Shown: positions 46,333-54,351, counted from the first letter of the stretch. The stretch is 64,000 nucleotides of DNA from Polyangiaceae bacterium (GCA_035548415.1 DASZTA010000046.1:27480-91479); one strand, 5' to 3'. Notes: a model not told the origin generated them from the letters alone. Numbers and translations: made by a program.

Positions 46333-47212
46333 CGATCGCCTGGAGTTACCGAGCTACCTGCACCACAGCGAAGAAGTGTCGGCGCGCTTCGCCGAGATCC
46401 GCAAGCGCCCGACCGTGATGCGCTTGTCCGCAGTTTCGCGCCAGTTCGAAGGTGCCCAAGGCCCGGTGCTGGCGCTTTCGAAAATCAGCTTCGACGTGCG
46501 GCAGCGTGAGTTCATCAGCGTCATCGGCCCTTCCGGCTGCGGCAAGTCCACGTTGATCCGCATCGTGGCAGGGCTCGAGACGTGCACGGGTGGCTCGATC
46601 ACCATCGACGGCAAAGAGGTGGGCGAGCCGGGGGCGGACCGGGGCATGGTGTTCCAGGGCTACACGCTCTTCCCGTGGCTCAACGTGAAGCAGAACGTGA
46701 TGTTCGGCCTCAAGATGAAGGGCATGCCCAAAGCCAAGGCCGAGCGCATGGCCATGGATTGGCTCGATCTCGTGGGCCTCACCAAGTTTGCCACGCATTA
46801 CCCGGCGCAGCTCTCGGGCGGCATGAAGCAGCGCGTGGCGATTGCGCGCGCGCTCGCCAACGAGCCGCGCATCTTGTTGATGGACGAGCCGTTCGGCGCG
46901 CTGGACGCTCAAACGCGCGGCAGCATGCAGGCGCATTTGCTCAAGATTTGGGAGACGGTCGACGTCACCATCCTGTTCATCACGCACGATCTGGACGAAG
47001 CCATCTACTTGTCGGACCGCATCGTGGTGCTGGGCGCGCACCCCGGCCGCATCCTCGAAATCATCGACGTGCCGGTGGAACGGCCGCGCAATACGGACCA
47101 ATTCCTATCCGGTCACTTTCTCGCGACCAAAAAGCGGCTCGAGCAATTGATTCACCATCGCGAAACCTCCCCGAAACCTGACTCGGGGAAACTAGGCATC
47201 GTCGCGGCCTGA
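46322..47212 (+). CDS. ABC transporter ATP-binding protein (TauB/NrtD-like)
   Basis: [42 protein letters not shown]. Confidence 0.96.
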
Positions 47213-47235
47213 AAGCCGCGGCGCTTCGCAAGCCT

Positions 47236-47287
47236 GAGCCGGGACGACCCGGTTCGCGACGGGCCACAATGCCGGGACGACCCGGCA
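47236..47287 (+). ncRNA. Guanidine-II (mini-ykkC) riboswitch aptamer
   Basis: Two GC-rich hairpins each capped by an ACGA loop: GAGCCGGG-ACGA-CCCGGTTC (47236-47255) and TGCCGGG-ACGA-CCCGGCA (47270-47287), 14-nt linker, upstream of cgdA-like genes. This is the defining architecture of the class. Confidence 0.9.
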
Positions 47288-47374
47288 CTGATTGTTCCTT
47301 GCAGGGTCCGGCCGGCACCGGGCGCGAGCGTTGCTCTACGTCGACCTTCCCTGCGAGGAGAAGGCACGACGAAG

Positions 47375-48103
47375 ATGAACGAGTCTCAGCTGATTTTGGA
47401 GGAAGCCCTGCGCGGCGGCCAGATGTGGTCGCGCATCTTGCGGCGCGGGCAAACACTGCGGCTGACCGATGTCGAAGGCGGGGCGGCGGTAGCGGCGCTC
47501 TTCTACAACGCCGAAGATCCGAGCGAGCGATACAACATGCCCGACACGCTCAAGGCGCAGCACATCGCACGCCTCACGAAGGGCTTCGTGCTGTATTCGG
47601 ACATGGGCCGTGTGCTCTGTTCGATCACAGAGGACAGCGTCGGCTGGCACGACACCATCACCGGGCACGGCACCGCTGCGCACGGCCGCGCCAAGTTCGG
47701 CGAAGGGACGTACCAAAAGCTACGCAACGATTGGTACCGCAACACGCGCGACAATTTCCTGGTCGAGCTGGGCAAGTACGACCTGGGTAAGCGCGACATC
47801 GTCGCCAACGTGAACTTTTTCGTGAAGGTCGTGGCGAACGAGCAGGGTGCGCTGTCGTTCGTGCCCGGGCATTCGCGGCCCGGCGGTTTCGTGGAGCTGC
47901 GCGCCGAGATGCACACGCTGGTGGTGCTCTCGAATACGCCCCACCCGCTCGATCCGAGCACCGTGTACGAGCAGAAGCCCGTCGCGCTCACGATTCGCGG
48001 CGGCGCTCCGGCAGGCGCAAACGACGCTTGTCGTCTCTCACGCCCCGAAAACGCGCGCGGCTTCACGCTGACAGAGAGCTACTACGCCGGGAGGGCAAGC
48101 TGA
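47375..48103 (+). CDS. cgdA: Carboxyguanidine deiminase subunit A (urea carboxylase-associated protein, DUF1989)
   Basis: [50 protein letters not shown]. Confidence 0.88.
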
Positions 48104-48747
48104 TGGCGCTCTCGGAGAGCAAGCTCGATCCGGCCAAGGCCGTCTTCGACCAGGTGGTACTGGCGGGGGACGGCTTCACGCATGTCGTCGAGCGCGGGCA
48201 GATCTTTCGTATCGTGGATCTGGAAGGGAACCAGGCCGCCGATACGTTGTTCTACGACGCGCACGACCCCAGCAACCGCTATAGCGCGGTCGACACGGTG
48301 CGCGAGCAAGGCAACATCTACCTTTCCACGGGTACCAAGCTGATGTCGCTCGATGGCGACGTGCTGATGACGATCGTGGCCGATACCTGCGGTCGCCACG
48401 ACACGCTCGGCGGCGCCTGCGCGGCCGAGTCGAATCAGGTCCGCTACGCGATCGAGAAGAAGTACATGCACGCCTGCCGCGATACGTTCTTGTTGCAGTG
48501 CGCGTGTCATACGCCCAACTTGAGCAAGCGCGACATCACCGCCAACGTCAACTTCTTCATGAACGTGCCGGTGACGCCCGAAGGCAAGCTCACGTTCGAA
48601 GACGGCGTCTCAGGCCCCGGCCGCTACGTAGAAATGCGCGCCGAACGCGATGTTCGCGTCCTCATCTCCAACTGCCCGCAGCTCAACAACCCCTGCAACG
48701 GCTACAACCCAACGCCCGTCCGCGTTCTCATCTGGGACGCCGAATGA
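48103..48747 (+). CDS. cgdB: Carboxyguanidine deiminase subunit B (urea carboxylase-associated protein, DUF1989)
   Basis: ATG overlaps the cgdA TGA; [52 protein letters not shown]. Confidence 0.9.
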
Positions 48748-48845
48748 CGAGCCTTCGCTTGCCTGACAACCAGATGGCTCCCCGCCTTTCTGTGAAGACG
48801 GCGAGCGCAGCGAGCGCGAATCAGCAGAACCTAACAGTCACGAAT

Positions 48846-48984
48846 GAACACGAAGAATCCGGAAGCCCGAGGGCCCGGGCCAATCTTGGAGGATCAGGAT
48901 TGAGCCCCTGGTTTGCCAACAACACTGAACCGGTGATGTCTACGAAGCGGTTCGGGTCCTCTGGCTTCCTGATTCTTCGCGTTC
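48846..48984. ncRNA. Unassigned structured element (31-bp closing stem, two inner hairpins) between cgdB and the carboxylase
   Basis: 48846-48876 pairs with 48954-48984 (27 WC pairs, 1 GU, 3 mismatches); inner hairpins at 48877-48907 and 48927-48953. Confidence 0.6.
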
Positions 48985-48997
48985 CCCAGCGCCAATC

Positions 48998-51900
48998 ATG
49001 TTCAAAAGCGTATTGATCGCTAACCGCGGCGAGATCGCGTGCCGCGTCATCCGTACCTTGAAGCGCCTCGGTGTGCGCTCGGTCGCCGTTTATTCGGAGG
49101 CCGATCGTCACGCCAGGCACGTGCTCGATGCCGATGTCGCGGTGTGCGTCGGCCCGGCCGCCGCCAAGCAGAGCTACCTGAACGCGGAAGCCGTGCTCGA
49201 GGCGGCGCGCAGCACCGGCGCCGAAGCCGTGCATCCGGGCTACGGCTTCTTGAGCGAAAATACGCGCTTTGCCGAAGCCGCCGAGGCCGCCGGCATCGCC
49301 TTCATTGGCCCGACTTCCGAGCAAATTTCCAAGTTTGGCTTGAAGCATACGGCGCGTGCCCTGGCCAAGGCGGCGGGTGTGCCGCTCCTCCCAGGGAGTG
49401 AGCTGCTCGCCAACCTCGAAGAAGCGCAAAGCGAGGCTACGCGCATCGGCTTCCCGGTCATGCTCAAGAGCTCGGCGGGTGGCGGCGGCATCGGTATGTC
49501 GCTCTGCCGCAGCGCGCAGGAGCTAGCGGCGGCCTACGAAACGGTACGCCGCTTGAGCCAAAACAATTTCGGCGACGCCAGCGTCTACCTCGAGCGCTTC
49601 GTGGAGCGCGCGCGCCACATCGAGGTACAGCTGTTCGGTGACGGTCGCGGTGACGTCATCGCGCTGGGCGAGCGCGACTGCTCGGCGCAGCGCCGCAACC
49701 AAAAGGTAATCGAAGAGACGCCGGCGCCGAACCTGGAGCCGGGGCTCCGTGCAGCGTTGCACGAAGCCGCGGTCGTGCTGGGTAGGAGCGTCGGCTACCG
49801 CTCGGCCGGCACCGTCGAGTTCGTGTTCGACGCCGAGCGGCGCGAATTTTACTTTCTCGAGGTGAACACGCGCCTGCAGGTCGAGCATGGCGTGACCGAA
49901 GAGGTGATGGGCGTCGACTTGGTCGAGTGGATGATCCGCACGGCAGCCGGTGAGCCCCCGGACTTGTCGGCATTTCGCGGCCGAGTGCCGCGCGGTCACT
50001 CGATCCAGGTGCGCGTTTACGCGGAGGATCCGGCGCGCGACTTCAAGCCCAGCTCGGGGTTGCTCACGGAGGTGAAGCTACCCAACGCTCGCGTCGACAG
50101 TTGGATCGAGCGCGGCACGGAGGTCTCACCCTTTTACGATCCGCTGCTCGCCAAGATCATCGTGCACGGCGAGAATCGCGAGCGCGCGCTCGAAAAGCTC
50201 AAGGGGGCGATCGCCGAGACTCGCATCGGCGGCATCGAGACCAACTTGAGCTACCTCGCGCAGTTGGCGCGCGATCCCGTGTTCGTGGCCGGCGAGACCA
50301 TCACGGCACACCTCAAGAGCGTCGCCTTCTCGACGGCCAGCATCGAGGTCGTGGTCCCCGGTACGTTCAGCATCGTGGTGGAGTACCCGGGCCGGCTCGG
50401 CTACTGGGACGTGGGCATTCCGCCTTCGGGGCCGATGGATCCGCTCGGGCTACGGCTCGCCAATCGCGTCGTCGGTAACGCGGAGGGCGCGGCAGGTATC
50501 GAGCTCACCATGTCCGGTCCCACGCTGCGTTTCGCGACGGACGCGCTGGTGGCGCTGACGGGCGCCGACATGGGCGCCACGCTCGACGACGTGCCGGTCC
50601 CGCAATTTGCGCCGATTTCCATCAAATCCGGCCAAATTCTCAAGCTGGGTGCCTCGGGCGGCTCCGGTGCGCGCGCGTATCTGGCGGTGCGCGGCGGGCT
50701 CGACGTGCCCGAATACTTGGGCAGCCGCACCACGTTCACGCTCGGCGGCTTCGGTGGTCATGGCGGGCGCGTGCTGCGTCGTGGCGACATCTTGCATGTC
50801 GGTGGTCACGCCGCGCCGGACGACCCGCGCGCGCTGCCGCCCGAGCTCTGGCCGAGCTTGGGCCGCCGCTGGCAGCTGGGGGTGCTTTACGGCCCGCACG
50901 GTGCTCCCGACTTCTTCACGCCGCGCGACATCGAGATGCTCTTCTCCACGGATTGGGAGGTGCACTACAACTCGAACCGCACCGGCGTACGCCTGATCGG
51001 ACCCAAACCCGAGTGGGCGCGACCGGACGGCGGCGAAGCCGGCCTGCATCCGTCGAACATTCACGATGTCGCGTATGCCATCGGCGCCATCGACTTCACG
51101 GGTGACATGCCGATCTTACTCGGTCCAGACGGCCCCAGCCTGGGCGGCTTCGTGTGCCCCGGCGTCGTCGCCACCTCCGAGCTGTGGAAGATGGGGCAGC
51201 TGCGTCCCGGCGATAGCGTGCGCTTCGTGCCGCTCGCTCCGGAGCAAGCGGCTGCTCTCCAATTGGCGCAAAATCGGCTGGTTTCGCAGCGTACGGCAAG
51301 CGCACCGGCGGAGCCGCTGGTGGCGACCGTGCCGAGCGGCGCGGTGGCGGCGGAGCTACCGGAAAGCTCCGAGCGCGTGCGCGTCGTTTACCGTCGTGCC
51401 GGCGATCGCTACTTGCTCGTGGAGTACGGGCCGCTGGTGCTCGACTTGCGGCTTCGCTTTCGTGTGCACTCGCTGATGACGTGGCTCAAGCAGAGCAAGC
51501 TGCCCGGCCTCGTCGACCTCACGCCGGGCGTGCGCTCGCTGCAGATCCATTTCGATCCGCACCGAGTCAGCGCGCAGCACCTGCTCTCGGCGTTGCGCAC
51601 CGCCGAGCAAGAGCTACCCGGCATCGACGACGTGGAGGTGCCGACCCGCACGGTGCACCTGCCGCTTTCGTGGGACGATCCCCAGACGCGTCTGGCGATT
51701 CAAAAATACACGACGTCGGTGCGGCCCGACGCGCCGTGGGCCCCGAGCAACATCGAGTTCATTCGTCGCATCAACGGCCTCGACTCGATTGAAGACGTGT
51801 ACAAGACCGTTTTCGGTGCCAGCTACCTGGTGCTGGGTCTGGGCGACGTGTACCTGGGGGCTCCAGTGGCCACGCCGGTCGACCCGCGCCACCGCCTCGT

Positions 51901-52609
51901 CACCACCAAGTACAACCCCGCGCGCACGTGGACGCCGGAAAACGCCGTCGGCATCGGCGGCGCGTACTTGTGCATCTACGGTATGGAGGGGCCGGGCGGC
52001 TATCAGTTCGTCGGCCGCACGCTGCAGGTCTACAACCGCTTTCGTTCGACCGAAAAATTCGTGGCCGGCACGCCCTGGCTGCTGCGCTTCTTCGATCAAA
52101 TACGGTTCTACCCCGTTTCCGCCGAAGAGCTCCTGGAGCAGCGCGAGGCCTTCCCCTACGGCAAGGTCGACATCCGCATCGACGAAGGCACCTTCAAGCT
52201 GCGCGACTACGAAGCTTTCTTGAAGGAGAACCAGGCGTCGATCCAGAGCTTCAAGTCGCAACAACAAGCGGCCTTCGAGGCCGAGCGCCAGCGCTGGATC
52301 GAAAGTGGCCAGCTCAGCTTCAGCAGCGAAGCGCAAGGCAGCGCCGGCGGCGCGACCGATGCGGCGGATCTGCCGGCAGGCGCCGAAGCCGTCGAGTCAC
52401 ACGTGCCCGGCAGCGTTTGGAAGCTCGAGGTCAAGGCGGGCGAGCGCGTCAAACGCGGCCAAACCCTGCTGGTCGTCGAGTCGATGAAGATGGAAATCGC
52501 GGTCGAAGCGCCGAGCGACGGGGTGGTGATCGAGCTGCTCGTCGGCGAGGGCAGGGCGGTTTCGCCCGGGCAACGCGTGGCGGTGCTCAAGAGCGAGGCG
52601 CGCGCGTGA
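48998..52609 (+). CDS. uca: Urea/guanidine carboxylase (biotin-dependent), guanidine-type
   Basis: BC domain ([35 protein letters not shown]), CT domain ([22 protein letters not shown]), biotinyl motif ESMKM. Confidence 0.97.
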
Positions 52610-54351
52610 CGGACGGCGGACGCCGCTTCTTGCCGCTAGGCGAGCTCGTGGCCGGAAACCGCAGCGGTCAGACCGCGCCGAGGCAGGAGCTGCTCGAGTG
52701 CGTTCGCCGCATTCAGGCCGAGGGTGAGCGGCCGATCTGGATTTCGACCTTCAACGAAGAGCAGGTGCTGGCACAGCTCGAGGCGGCGGACGAAGCGGGG
52801 CCGCTTTACGGCGTACCCTTCGCCGTGAAGGACAACATCGACGTCGCCGGGTTGCCCACCACGGCGGCGTGCCCGCAGTTCAGCTACATGCCGGCGCGCC
52901 ATGCCACGGTGGTCGAGCGTCTGGTGCAAGCCGGCGCCATCGTGATCGGCAAGACCAACCTGGATCAATTTGCGACCGGTCTGGTCGGCACGCGCACGCC
53001 CTACGGCGCCTGCAGCTCCGTATTCGACGCGCGCTACATTTCGGGCGGTTCCAGCTCGGGTTCGGCGGTGGCCGTCGCCAAAGGGCAGGTGGCGTTCTCG
53101 CTCGGCACCGACACGGCCGGTTCCGGGCGAATTCCGGCGGCCTTCAACGCGCTGTGCGGCGTGAAGCCGACGCGCGGCGTGCTCTCGAACCGCGGTGTGG
53201 TACCGGCGTGCCGCTCGCTCGACTGCGTCTCGATTTTCAGCAGCAGCCTGGCGGACGCCGAGCTCCTGTTCGAGGTGTGCGCCGGCTTCGACGCCGACGA
53301 TCCGTTTTCGCGACCGCGCGAGGCCGTTACCGGCTTTGGTGACGCGCGCCTGCGCCTGGCCGCACCGCGTGCCGAAGACCTCGAGTTCTTCGGCGACGAC
53401 GAGAGCGCCGAGCTGTTCCTGGCCGCGCTCGAGCGCGCCAAAGGCCTGGGCGCCGAGATCAGCCGCTTCGATTTGTCGCCGTTTCGGGAGACGGCGGCGC
53501 TGCTCTACGCCGGACCTTGGGTCGCCGAGCGCCTGGCGACCGCTGCGGCCTTGCTGGAGCGCAACGCCGAGGCGGTGCACCCGGTGGTGCGCGGCATCAT
53601 CGAAGGTGGCCGCAAGTACAGCGCGCTCGAGACCTTTCGTTCGCTTTATCACCTGGGCGAGCTCCGGCGCCGCGCCGACCAGATACTCGCGAGCTGCGAC
53701 GCGTTGCTGTTGCCCACCGCGCCCACGCATTACACGATCGAAGAAGTGCTGCAGAACCCGCTGGAGCTCAATGCGCGCCTCGGCACTTACACCAACTTCG
53801 TGAACCTGCTCGATTTGTGCGCGCTGGCGGTGCCGGCGGGATTCAAGCCATCGGGCTTGCCGTTCGGCGTTACCTTCATGGCGCCGGCTTTTCACGACGC
53901 TCGGCTGCTCGAGCTGGGGCGAGCTTTCACGGGTGAGCAGGCGCAGCGCCGGCAAGCAGCACCCGGCTGCGTCTGGTTGGCGGTGGCCGGTGCGCACCTG
54001 TCGGGGCAACCACTCAATCCAGAGCTCACCTCGCGGGGGGCTCGTCGCATTCGCACCACCAAAACCGCTCCCGAGTACCGGCTCTTCGCGCTCGACACCG
54101 TGCCGCCCAAGCCCGGCCTCGTGCACACGCCCGGCGAAGCCGCGCACGCCATCGAGGTCGAAGTCTGGGAGCTTACCGCGAGCGCCTTCGGCGACTTCGT
54201 GGCGCACATCCCCGCGCCGATGACGATCGGCATGACGAAGCTGGCGGACGGCTCGTTGATCAAGGGCTTCGCCTGCGAGCCTCACGCGCTGGAAGGCGCG
54301 CGCGAGATCAGCCAATTCGGCAGCTGGCGTGCGTTTCGCGCGAGCGCATAA
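52606..54351 (+). CDS. atzF: Allophanate hydrolase
   Basis: GTG overlapping the uca TGA; amidase signature [35 protein letters not shown]; C-terminal [10 protein letters not shown] domain. Confidence 0.96.

Follow-up and report, generated by a model that had tools for sequence, protein, structure and literature searches.

The stretch of DNA analysed here (the window) comprises 64,000 nucleotides from a Polyangiaceae bacterium (GCA_035548415.1, DASZTA010000046.1:27480-91479) and carries genes for guanidine catabolism. Their order is an ABC transporter (NMT1-type binding protein, permease and ATPase), a 162-nt gap, cgdA, cgdB, a 250-nt gap, uca and an amidase gene. On the + strand lie cgdA (47375-48103), a DUF1989 gene, and, directly 5' of the 250-nt gap, a cgdB-type gene of the same kind (48103-48747; Pfam DUF1989 and contig gene calls). 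The Pfam domains of the + strand gene uca (48998-52609) identify a urea/guanidine carboxylase-type biotin enzyme of 1203 aa, whose homologues carry the name urea carboxylase in their source records, and an allophanate hydrolase-type amidase follows at 52606-54351. Guanidine is a widespread bacterial nitrogen source, and its carboxylase pathway is controlled at the operon 5' end by guanidine riboswitches. Here a guanidine-II riboswitch (mini-ykkC; Rfam RF01068, 41.3 bits against a gathering score of 32) is located 5' of cgdA at 47236-47285 on the + strand, within the 162-nt interval. It sits between the ABC ATPase gene and cgdA and not 5' of the transporter genes. The original prediction had all operon junctions other than cgdB-uca overlapping, which is wrong, as these 162 nt separate the ATPase gene from cgdA.

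The cgdB-uca gap (48748-48997, 250 nt as predicted) contains the element under study. As originally flagged, it covers 139 nt on the + strand (48846-48984), delimited by its inverted repeat, fold statistics and covariance model R1, with a conserved core at 48851-48982. The sequences quoted in the original prediction are present exactly where it placed them, and its inverted repeat is real: a repeat search returned 32-nt arms (48846-48877 and 48953-48984) with 88% complementarity, the second-longest inverted repeat within the 64-kb window. Another long inverted repeat, of unrelated sequence, lies at 70-96 and 145-171 (27-nt arms, 93% complementary, 48 nt apart). The + strand of the element folds at -78.5 kcal/mol, compared with -45.4 +/- 3.9 kcal/mol in 200 dinucleotide shuffles (z = -8.45), none of which (0/200) matched it, while the - strand reaches -71.0 kcal/mol (z = -6.9).

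The element ends, as predicted, 13 nt 5' of the uca ATG (48998). This variable spacer (48985-48997, + strand) has no Shine-Dalgarno sequence and ends in the common (N)GCC/AUC 5' of the AUG. Because the Pfam domain Biotin_carb_N aligns from 1-110 with Uca residues 1-110, ATG 48998 is the true uca start; that it lacks a Shine-Dalgarno sequence had also been foreseen, and none was seen upstream. Among the operon genes uca alone is without one, and it is missing from uca in all species seen; about half of the genes in the source genome lack one as well.

Distribution and conservation

An exact-pattern search through one genome per species (185,579 species) returned ten Myxococcota/Polyangiaceae MAGs, each with both arms at a single place, and three additional single-arm chance matches in unrelated phyla. 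All ten genome copies lie between cgdB and uca, as judged by BLAST and tblastn. A second pattern run over the JGI metagenome collection yielded 15 more contigs, all with cgdB-uca synteny, and protein look-ups added five further element loci, for a total of about 30 Polyangiaceae/Myxococcota assemblies. Covariance-model searches detected one copy per locus and no second copy elsewhere in the window. Soil-metagenome contigs over the element hold near-identical copies with 0-3 differences, and their likeness to the window ends exactly at the ends of the inverted repeat; the right flanks differ and then lead into an ATGTTC start. Such contigs were too noisy for scoring presence or absence and were used only for these sharp boundaries and for one relative with a 6-nt cgdB-uca junction. 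The gene tables of two further relatives list gaps of 202-216 nt, which would be consistent with the element.

The original prediction had also considered a MITE-like insertion, a reading that it tied to many dispersed copies. Since dispersed copies are absent, this reading is refuted: genome and metagenome scans and covariance models gave only the syntenic copy, one per genome and always between cgdB and uca, and BLAST against plasmid and phage collections found no similar sequence. No target-site duplication was seen at the element flanks (...CACGAAT / CCCAGCG...), which differ in every species. Overall, the element is a single-copy + strand RNA structure found solely where cgdB meets uca in one Polyangiaceae clade.

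The element has a mean column identity of 96% over the 22 non-identical copies from the main clade, and its positions 92 to 137 are invariant. The first 240 nt of uca have a mean identity to the window of 78% (89% at codon positions 1+2 and 56% at position 3), and the spacers flanking the element are unalignable and vary in length. Hence the element is under much stronger constraint than its surroundings including coding sequence, and this comparison of sequences shows very strong purifying selection. Its distance from the cgdB stop ranges from 3 to >400 nt, whereas its spacer to the uca AUG measures 7 to 22 nt in the main clade, with 86 nt in locus L017; counted from the helix, nearly all main-clade copies lie 10-22 nt from the uca AUG. 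Its position is thus fixed tightly relative to the uca AUG and loosely relative to the cgdB stop.

A Uca protein search gave a graded series of relatives. Loci with Uca at 78-80% identity (L031, L032) have near-identical elements, those at 72-74% (L033, L034, L039) have diverged elements, and those at 66-70% have none. With model R1, 24 main-clade loci score 143-176 bits and the three diverged ones 62-76 bits; the latter reach 96-101 bits with a combined covariance model. The cgdB-uca junctions of L037 and L038 are 9 and 3 nt long, and L036 has a different upstream gene. From this graded series it follows that the junction was originally compact and that the element entered it in one Polyangiaceae lineage. 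In L035 (350-427; Uca 72% identity) a 78-nt cgdB-uca gap holds a remnant resembling CCGGUGA...CGAAGCGG and no closing helix; as only this remnant is kept, decay of the element has occurred at least once. Regarding the guanidine-II riboswitch, it was found 5' of cgdA in 9 further element-bearing loci, with L033 as the only tested element-bearing locus that lacks it before cgdA, while L037 and L038 have neither the riboswitch nor the uca element. Its distance to cgdA is 260-330 nt in the diverged clade (L034:2163-2422, L039:1075-1401) compared with 90 nt in the window.

The variable spacer upstream of the element collects palindromic insertions. In L007 a separate 163-nt palindrome (140-302; arms 140-177 and 265-302, 38 nt, 92% complementary) lies 5' of the element. 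L015, L010 and the window retain a module similar to the right arm of this palindrome plus its flank (CCCCGCCTTTCTGTGAAGACGGCGAGCGCAGCGAGCGCGA); in the window the remnant occupies 48780-48819 (+ strand), outside the conserved element. L006 (6043-6181) and L011 (2450-2656) contain tandem duplications of about 100 nt between cgdB and the element, each with a G+C-rich hairpin followed by TTTGTCTC, which is terminator-like, and both loci have short repeats of the CTAACCCC type immediately 5' of the element. Many copies, not all, are preceded by a C-rich, G-poor (rut-like) tract.

Conserved RNA structure

The structural test was based on alignment A5, which contains 27 sequences including the three diverged copies, and on 39 modelled pairs. 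Over these pairs 97.8% of the cells are paired, a share that falls to 31-55% if the 3' partners are moved along by 1-3 columns. Both sides have changed in eight pairs (for instance A-U to G-C, U-A to C-G and C-G to A-U or G-C), compared with 1.7 +/- 1.1 in shuffles; 0/500 shuffles attained the observed number. Compensatory changes have thus maintained the pairing.

The closing helix P1 has 29 conserved pairs with 98% of cells paired. Its 5' strand (48851-48881, + strand) consists of the arm described earlier (48851-48876) and a conserved extension, GGGCC (48877-48881), and four of its pairs show compensatory changes. Positions 48860 and 48868 belong to conserved internal C x U mismatches. The 3' strand (48949-48979, + strand), which is invariant across the main clade as judged outside the searched pattern, begins with GGUUC (48949-48953), the partner of the extension, and continues with GGGUCCUCUGGCUUCCUGAUUCUUCG. 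The extension is 100% paired, and the only changes within it are G·U to A-U in five sequences and C-G to U·G in one. GGCUUC in the 3' arm (48963-48968) has look-alike partners in GAAGCC of the left arm (48863-48867), GAGCC of the P2 loop (48902-48906) and the (N)GCC 5' of the uca AUG, which on sequence alone hint at alternative pairings.

P1 is followed by the linker J1/2 (48882-48891, + strand), the 5' half of what had been described as hairpin A, which comprises the most variable columns of the alignment; 5 nt of it are deleted in L006, and L033, L034 and L039 have unrelated sequence in its place. The hairpin P2 (48892-48913, + strand) has a 7-bp stem and the loop AUUGAGCC (48899-48906), which reads A(U/A)UGAGCC in 27/27 sequences. 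Four of its seven pairs are changed on both sides, e.g. A-U to G-C in three sequences, and P2 is present in the minimum-energy folds of L006, L033, L034 and L039. The remaining stretch of about 35 nt, J2/1 (48914-48948, + strand; alignments A1, A2 and A5), is mostly single-stranded. On the same strand it includes the A/C-rich tract CCAACAACAC (48916-48925), the invariant CCGGUGA (48930-48936), the tandem start codons GUG AUG (48933-48938) and CGAAGC (48943-48948), together with a weak P3 of three pairs that lacks compensatory support.

The original prediction was a three-way junction with an inner hairpin on either side of an A/C-rich linker. This junction is the predicted minimum in the window, with hairpin A present in the minimum-energy fold and hairpin B in a suboptimal one that lies 1 kcal/mol above it, but the conserved fold is a different one. 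The base of hairpin A (GGGC/GCCC) is broken in five sequences and its upper stem in up to six, and hairpin B has six unpaired cells and zero compensation. The alternative register mentioned in the same prediction, which corresponds to the P1 extension, is instead supported, as every sequence is paired and G·U pairs have changed to A-U; its energy in the window exceeds the minimum by 1.3 kcal/mol. Nearly all main-clade sequences show an energy difference of at most about 3 kcal/mol between the two folds (4.5 in L021), while L006 and the three diverged copies favor the extended-helix fold by 16-19 kcal/mol. Pairing and the energy comparison of the competing folds therefore identify the conserved architecture as a rod: a helix of about 34-36 bp with two C x U mismatches, a variable linker, P2 and a largely unpaired stretch of about 35 nt. 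The three-way junction may be an alternative conformer in the main clade.

Several lines of evidence place the function in the + strand RNA, namely five G·U pairs in P1 and P2 (G28·U112, G33·U107, G34·U106, G47·U68 and U49·G66), the weaker - strand fold and the covariance-model scores of 167.8 bits for the + strand against 58.5 bits for the - strand. Many RNA runs, small ones among them, contain 31-mers of the element, and contigs joining the element to species-specific flanks at a depth of 2-4 were obtained from two true metatranscriptomes and several runs of uncertain type. This is consistent with the element being transcribed as part of an mRNA.

As predicted, the element falls outside the known riboswitch classes: Rfam 15, whose models include guanidine-I to -IV, 6S and ribozymes, gave no match to the element in the window at the gathering score or at E <= 10, and none to the three diverged copies at E <= 5. 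ARAGORN detected 0 tRNA-like or tmRNA genes in 48700-49050. We found no description of the element in the guanidine-riboswitch literature or in ncRNA-discovery surveys. GGAM-2, -3, -4 and -6 occur only upstream of sugE and GGAM-5 most often does, in other lineages (PMC7736828). Candidate signals within the element were also rejected. There is no sigma-70 promoter or intrinsic terminator in or near it, the second hairpin of the guanidine-II riboswitch with its T-rich tail being the sole terminator-like site in 47100-49100. On inspection, a sigma-54 promoter in the 3' arm does not fit with respect to spacing and the -12 GC, and a third ACGR loop for the guanidine-II riboswitch (CU-ACGA-AG) is excluded because the diverged clade reads GCGA. 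Generic riboswitch features are present, i.e. a cis domain tied to one gene class, covarying stems and conserved unpaired nucleotides, while a search for an expression platform found no terminator and no Shine-Dalgarno sequence to sequester, and near-isoenergetic folds in the main clade only.

A candidate leader ORF at the uca start

From the tandem start codons (GUG 48933 / AUG 48936) a candidate leader ORF of 26-27 codons extends on the + strand to a TGA at 49014-49016 (48933-49016 in total). It runs down the 3' arm and across the spacer, and its TGA, 19 nt inside uca, is embedded in the conserved Leu-Ile codons of VLIANRGE. Every copy has retained a start codon here, as GUGAUG, GUCGUG or GUGCUG and as GUG in the diverged clade; one lineage has undergone the double change from GUGAUG to GUCGUG and another has GUGCUG. 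The internal start has no Shine-Dalgarno sequence of its own. GGUGA within CCGGUGA (48932-48936) is complementary to the 3' tail of 16S rRNA and hence Shine-Dalgarno-like.

In 10/10 genome copies the distance from the internal ATG to the uca ATG is 2 mod 3, at 62, 68 or 71 nt. In most main-clade sequences, with start-to-start classes of 56, 59, 62, 63, 68, 71 and 135 nt, the leader ORF stops between -8 and +19 relative to the uca AUG. With metagenome and read-derived copies included, the classes of 56, 59, 62, 68 and 71 nt end at +1, +7 or +19, and the classes of 63 and 135 nt, which are in another frame, have a TGA three nucleotides before the uca ATG. X31, a 71-nt variant, has its TGA just 5' of the uca ATG. 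All in-frame stops inside spacers (4/4) lie in the last three codons before the ATG. A rough estimate over 8 spacer classes, which ignores phylogeny, puts the probability of a chance origin of this frame and stop pattern at about 0.03.

The pattern has exceptions. L019, L026 and L028 (61 nt) read on out of frame for 107-213 codons, and one variant from an RNA run contains an early TAG. The conserved 3' arm is put into a different frame by a 1-nt indel in the diverged copies; the leader ORF of L033 stops 45 nt short of the AUG, and those of L034 and L039 run through it. The leader peptide shows no synonymous changes in the main clade, and the 3' arm is read in a different frame in the diverged clade. 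Because of the exceptions and the frame shift, the conserved entity is the RNA with its nucleotides and not a peptide.

Other coding and start-site readings were excluded. Occlusion of the uca start by the helix is not indicated, as the predicted accessibility is similar with and without it. An N-terminal extension of Uca through the element is rejected because the upstream uca frame has stops in 4/11 species. A longer ORF from TTG 48900, behind GGAGGA in the loop of hairpin A, fails because conservation does not extend to GGAGGA and the frame is disrupted by 1-nt indels that are not compensated.

Possible functions and related systems

The element most likely controls the amount of guanidine carboxylase. 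We infer that it is a new uca-specific post-transcriptional gate, separate from cgdAB, and as such it would be a second, operon-internal control point on the ATP- and biotin-consuming carboxylase alone. In the reading we prefer, it would be a cis-acting element of the polycistronic guanidine-catabolism mRNA and part of the uca translation start region. The long helix would shield the Shine-Dalgarno-less uca start from upstream ribosomes, while ribosomes would load on the unpaired internal stretch and initiate at the internal GUG/AUG. Translation of a leader ORF of 26-29 codons down the 3' arm would then unzip the helix, and ribosomes stopping at or just past the uca AUG would reinitiate there. 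The P2 loop and the junction could be the site where a ligand or protein decides whether the internal start is usable. To this insulating helix, unzipped by leader-ORF translation and followed by reinitiation at uca, we assign a probability of roughly 0.3. Of leader-ORF unzipping, RNase III processing and ligand or protein binding, which rank close together and are not mutually exclusive, it is the only mechanism with comparative support, and that support has the exceptions described above.

An RNase III-type site, which the original prediction also raised and which we consider tentatively, would split the cgdAB part of the message from the uca-allophanate hydrolase part by a cut in the helix, giving the two parts different half-lives and freeing the uca start. 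A helix of about 20 bp suffices for RNase III at E. coli and T7 sites, and it is the length of the present one, 34-36 bp and so far beyond that need, which speaks for processing. The helix also has two conserved internal mismatches 8 bp apart and lies between cistrons near the downstream start, and since no conserved reading frame is required this reading fits the diverged copies. Contigs from Logan RNA runs have no consistent ends at the helix, although such contigs carry no end information. Cleavage alone leaves unexplained the invariant P2 loop, CCGGUGA and CGAAGC, as well as the inner two-thirds of the helix, which is sequence-invariant across both clades. Invariance of the unpaired nucleotides and the hairpin loop across clades, next to covarying stems, would suit a riboswitch-like or protein-binding aptamer, a reading that we consider as tentatively as RNase III processing. 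Here the inner helix, the P2 loop and the junction would bind a regulator or a pathway metabolite (guanidine, carboxyguanidine, allophanate, urea or bicarbonate) and thereby act on uca translation or mRNA fate. The tie to a single gene family, the lack of an Rfam match and the two mutually exclusive main-clade folds within about +/-3 kcal/mol are in line with an aptamer, and inspection of the sequence suggests possible competition for GGUUC between GAGCC of the P2 loop and the 5' strand. However, a closing helix of 34-36 bp is far too stable for toggling in the manner of a riboswitch P1, there is neither a terminator nor a sequestered Shine-Dalgarno sequence, L006 and the diverged clade have not kept the second fold (hairpins A and B), and the operon already has a guanidine-II riboswitch.

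Excision of the rod or its inner part as an intergenic sRNA that acts in trans, e.g. via the A/C-rich stretch, is improbable. The occurrence of element 31-mers in RNA runs, including small ones, and the conserved single-stranded segments would suit it, but the RNA contigs look like mRNA fragments because they have species-specific flanks and low depth (2-4), and the tight tether to the uca AUG favors action in cis. Least probable is a functionless MITE/REP-like relic or a palindrome acting at the DNA level as an operator or cruciform. The neighboring spacer has acquired other palindromes and duplications, and since relatives with 66-68% Uca identity have cgdB-uca junctions of 3-9 nt the element was inserted at some point. 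Against a relic stand the lack of other copies in the 185,579 species genomes, the metagenome collection, plasmids and phages, the lack of a visible target-site duplication and an identity of 96% where neutral sites have about 56%; against a DNA palindrome, the G·U pairs and compensatory changes point to RNA.

It is also conceivable, at a likelihood below that of leader-ORF unzipping, that the element represents a new regulatory RNA class for guanidine carboxylase, either a sensor of an intermediate or nitrogen signal or a rod recruiting ribosomes onto a Shine-Dalgarno-less start. The sensor option would concern carboxyguanidine, allophanate, bicarbonate or a nitrogen signal, and to our knowledge no riboswitch has been found so far for such an intermediate or signal. 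A new class would also mean that the invariance reflects contact with a conserved machine (ribosome, RNA polymerase or nuclease) beyond pairing. For an mRNA leader it is unusual that about 130 nt are more constant than codon positions 1+2 of the biotin carboxylase domain, and such constancy marks a strong, specific molecular interaction. The Polyangiaceae are a soil-dominant lineage of predators and decomposers hardly studied at the RNA level, and the covariance-supported alignment and model can seed an Rfam-type family. In L031 (4001-4099) the JGI call for Uca (1236 aa) begins at a TTG in the P2 loop and so takes in the 3' arm, an N-terminal extension that is probably mis-called; wrong starts of this kind could hide the element in annotations.

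In comparison with known systems, the element resembles the intercistronic RNase III hairpins of the T7 early region, such as R1.1, and of E. coli rpsO-pnp and metY-nusA-infB in being a long, imperfect intercistronic helix with internal mismatches just 5' of the next start, and by analogy it would give the upstream and downstream messages independent fates. It differs in its invariant loop, its invariant single-stranded motifs and a conservation that goes beyond pairing, and cleavage here is putative. With the guanidine riboswitches I-IV (ykkC, mini-ykkC, ykkC-III and mepA/GGAM-1) and the orphan motifs GGAM-2 to -6 it shares a structured mRNA associated with guanidine-pathway genes; unlike them it is much larger with its closing helix of 34-36 bp and lies inside the operon before uca instead of at the operon 5' end, and none of their covariance models matches it even at E <= 10. 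Short leader ORFs are known from the ermC and cat leader peptides and mgtL, and termination-reinitiation coupling from the MS2 lysis gene. Analogous to these, a short ORF would melt a helix near a Shine-Dalgarno-less start and stop near that start, whereas the peptide is not conserved across clades, exceptions exist and no inducer or stalling motif is evident. Like MITEs, REP and Correia-type repeats the element is intergenic and about 140 nt long with terminal inverted repeats of about 30 nt, but it is present as a single copy at a fixed syntenic site, has no target-site duplication and shows RNA-type covariation. Overall, the element matches no described family and is of unusual build, combining a very long closing helix, an invariant loop and a position inside an operon, and by analogy it may work like known kinds of intercistronic mRNA control elements.
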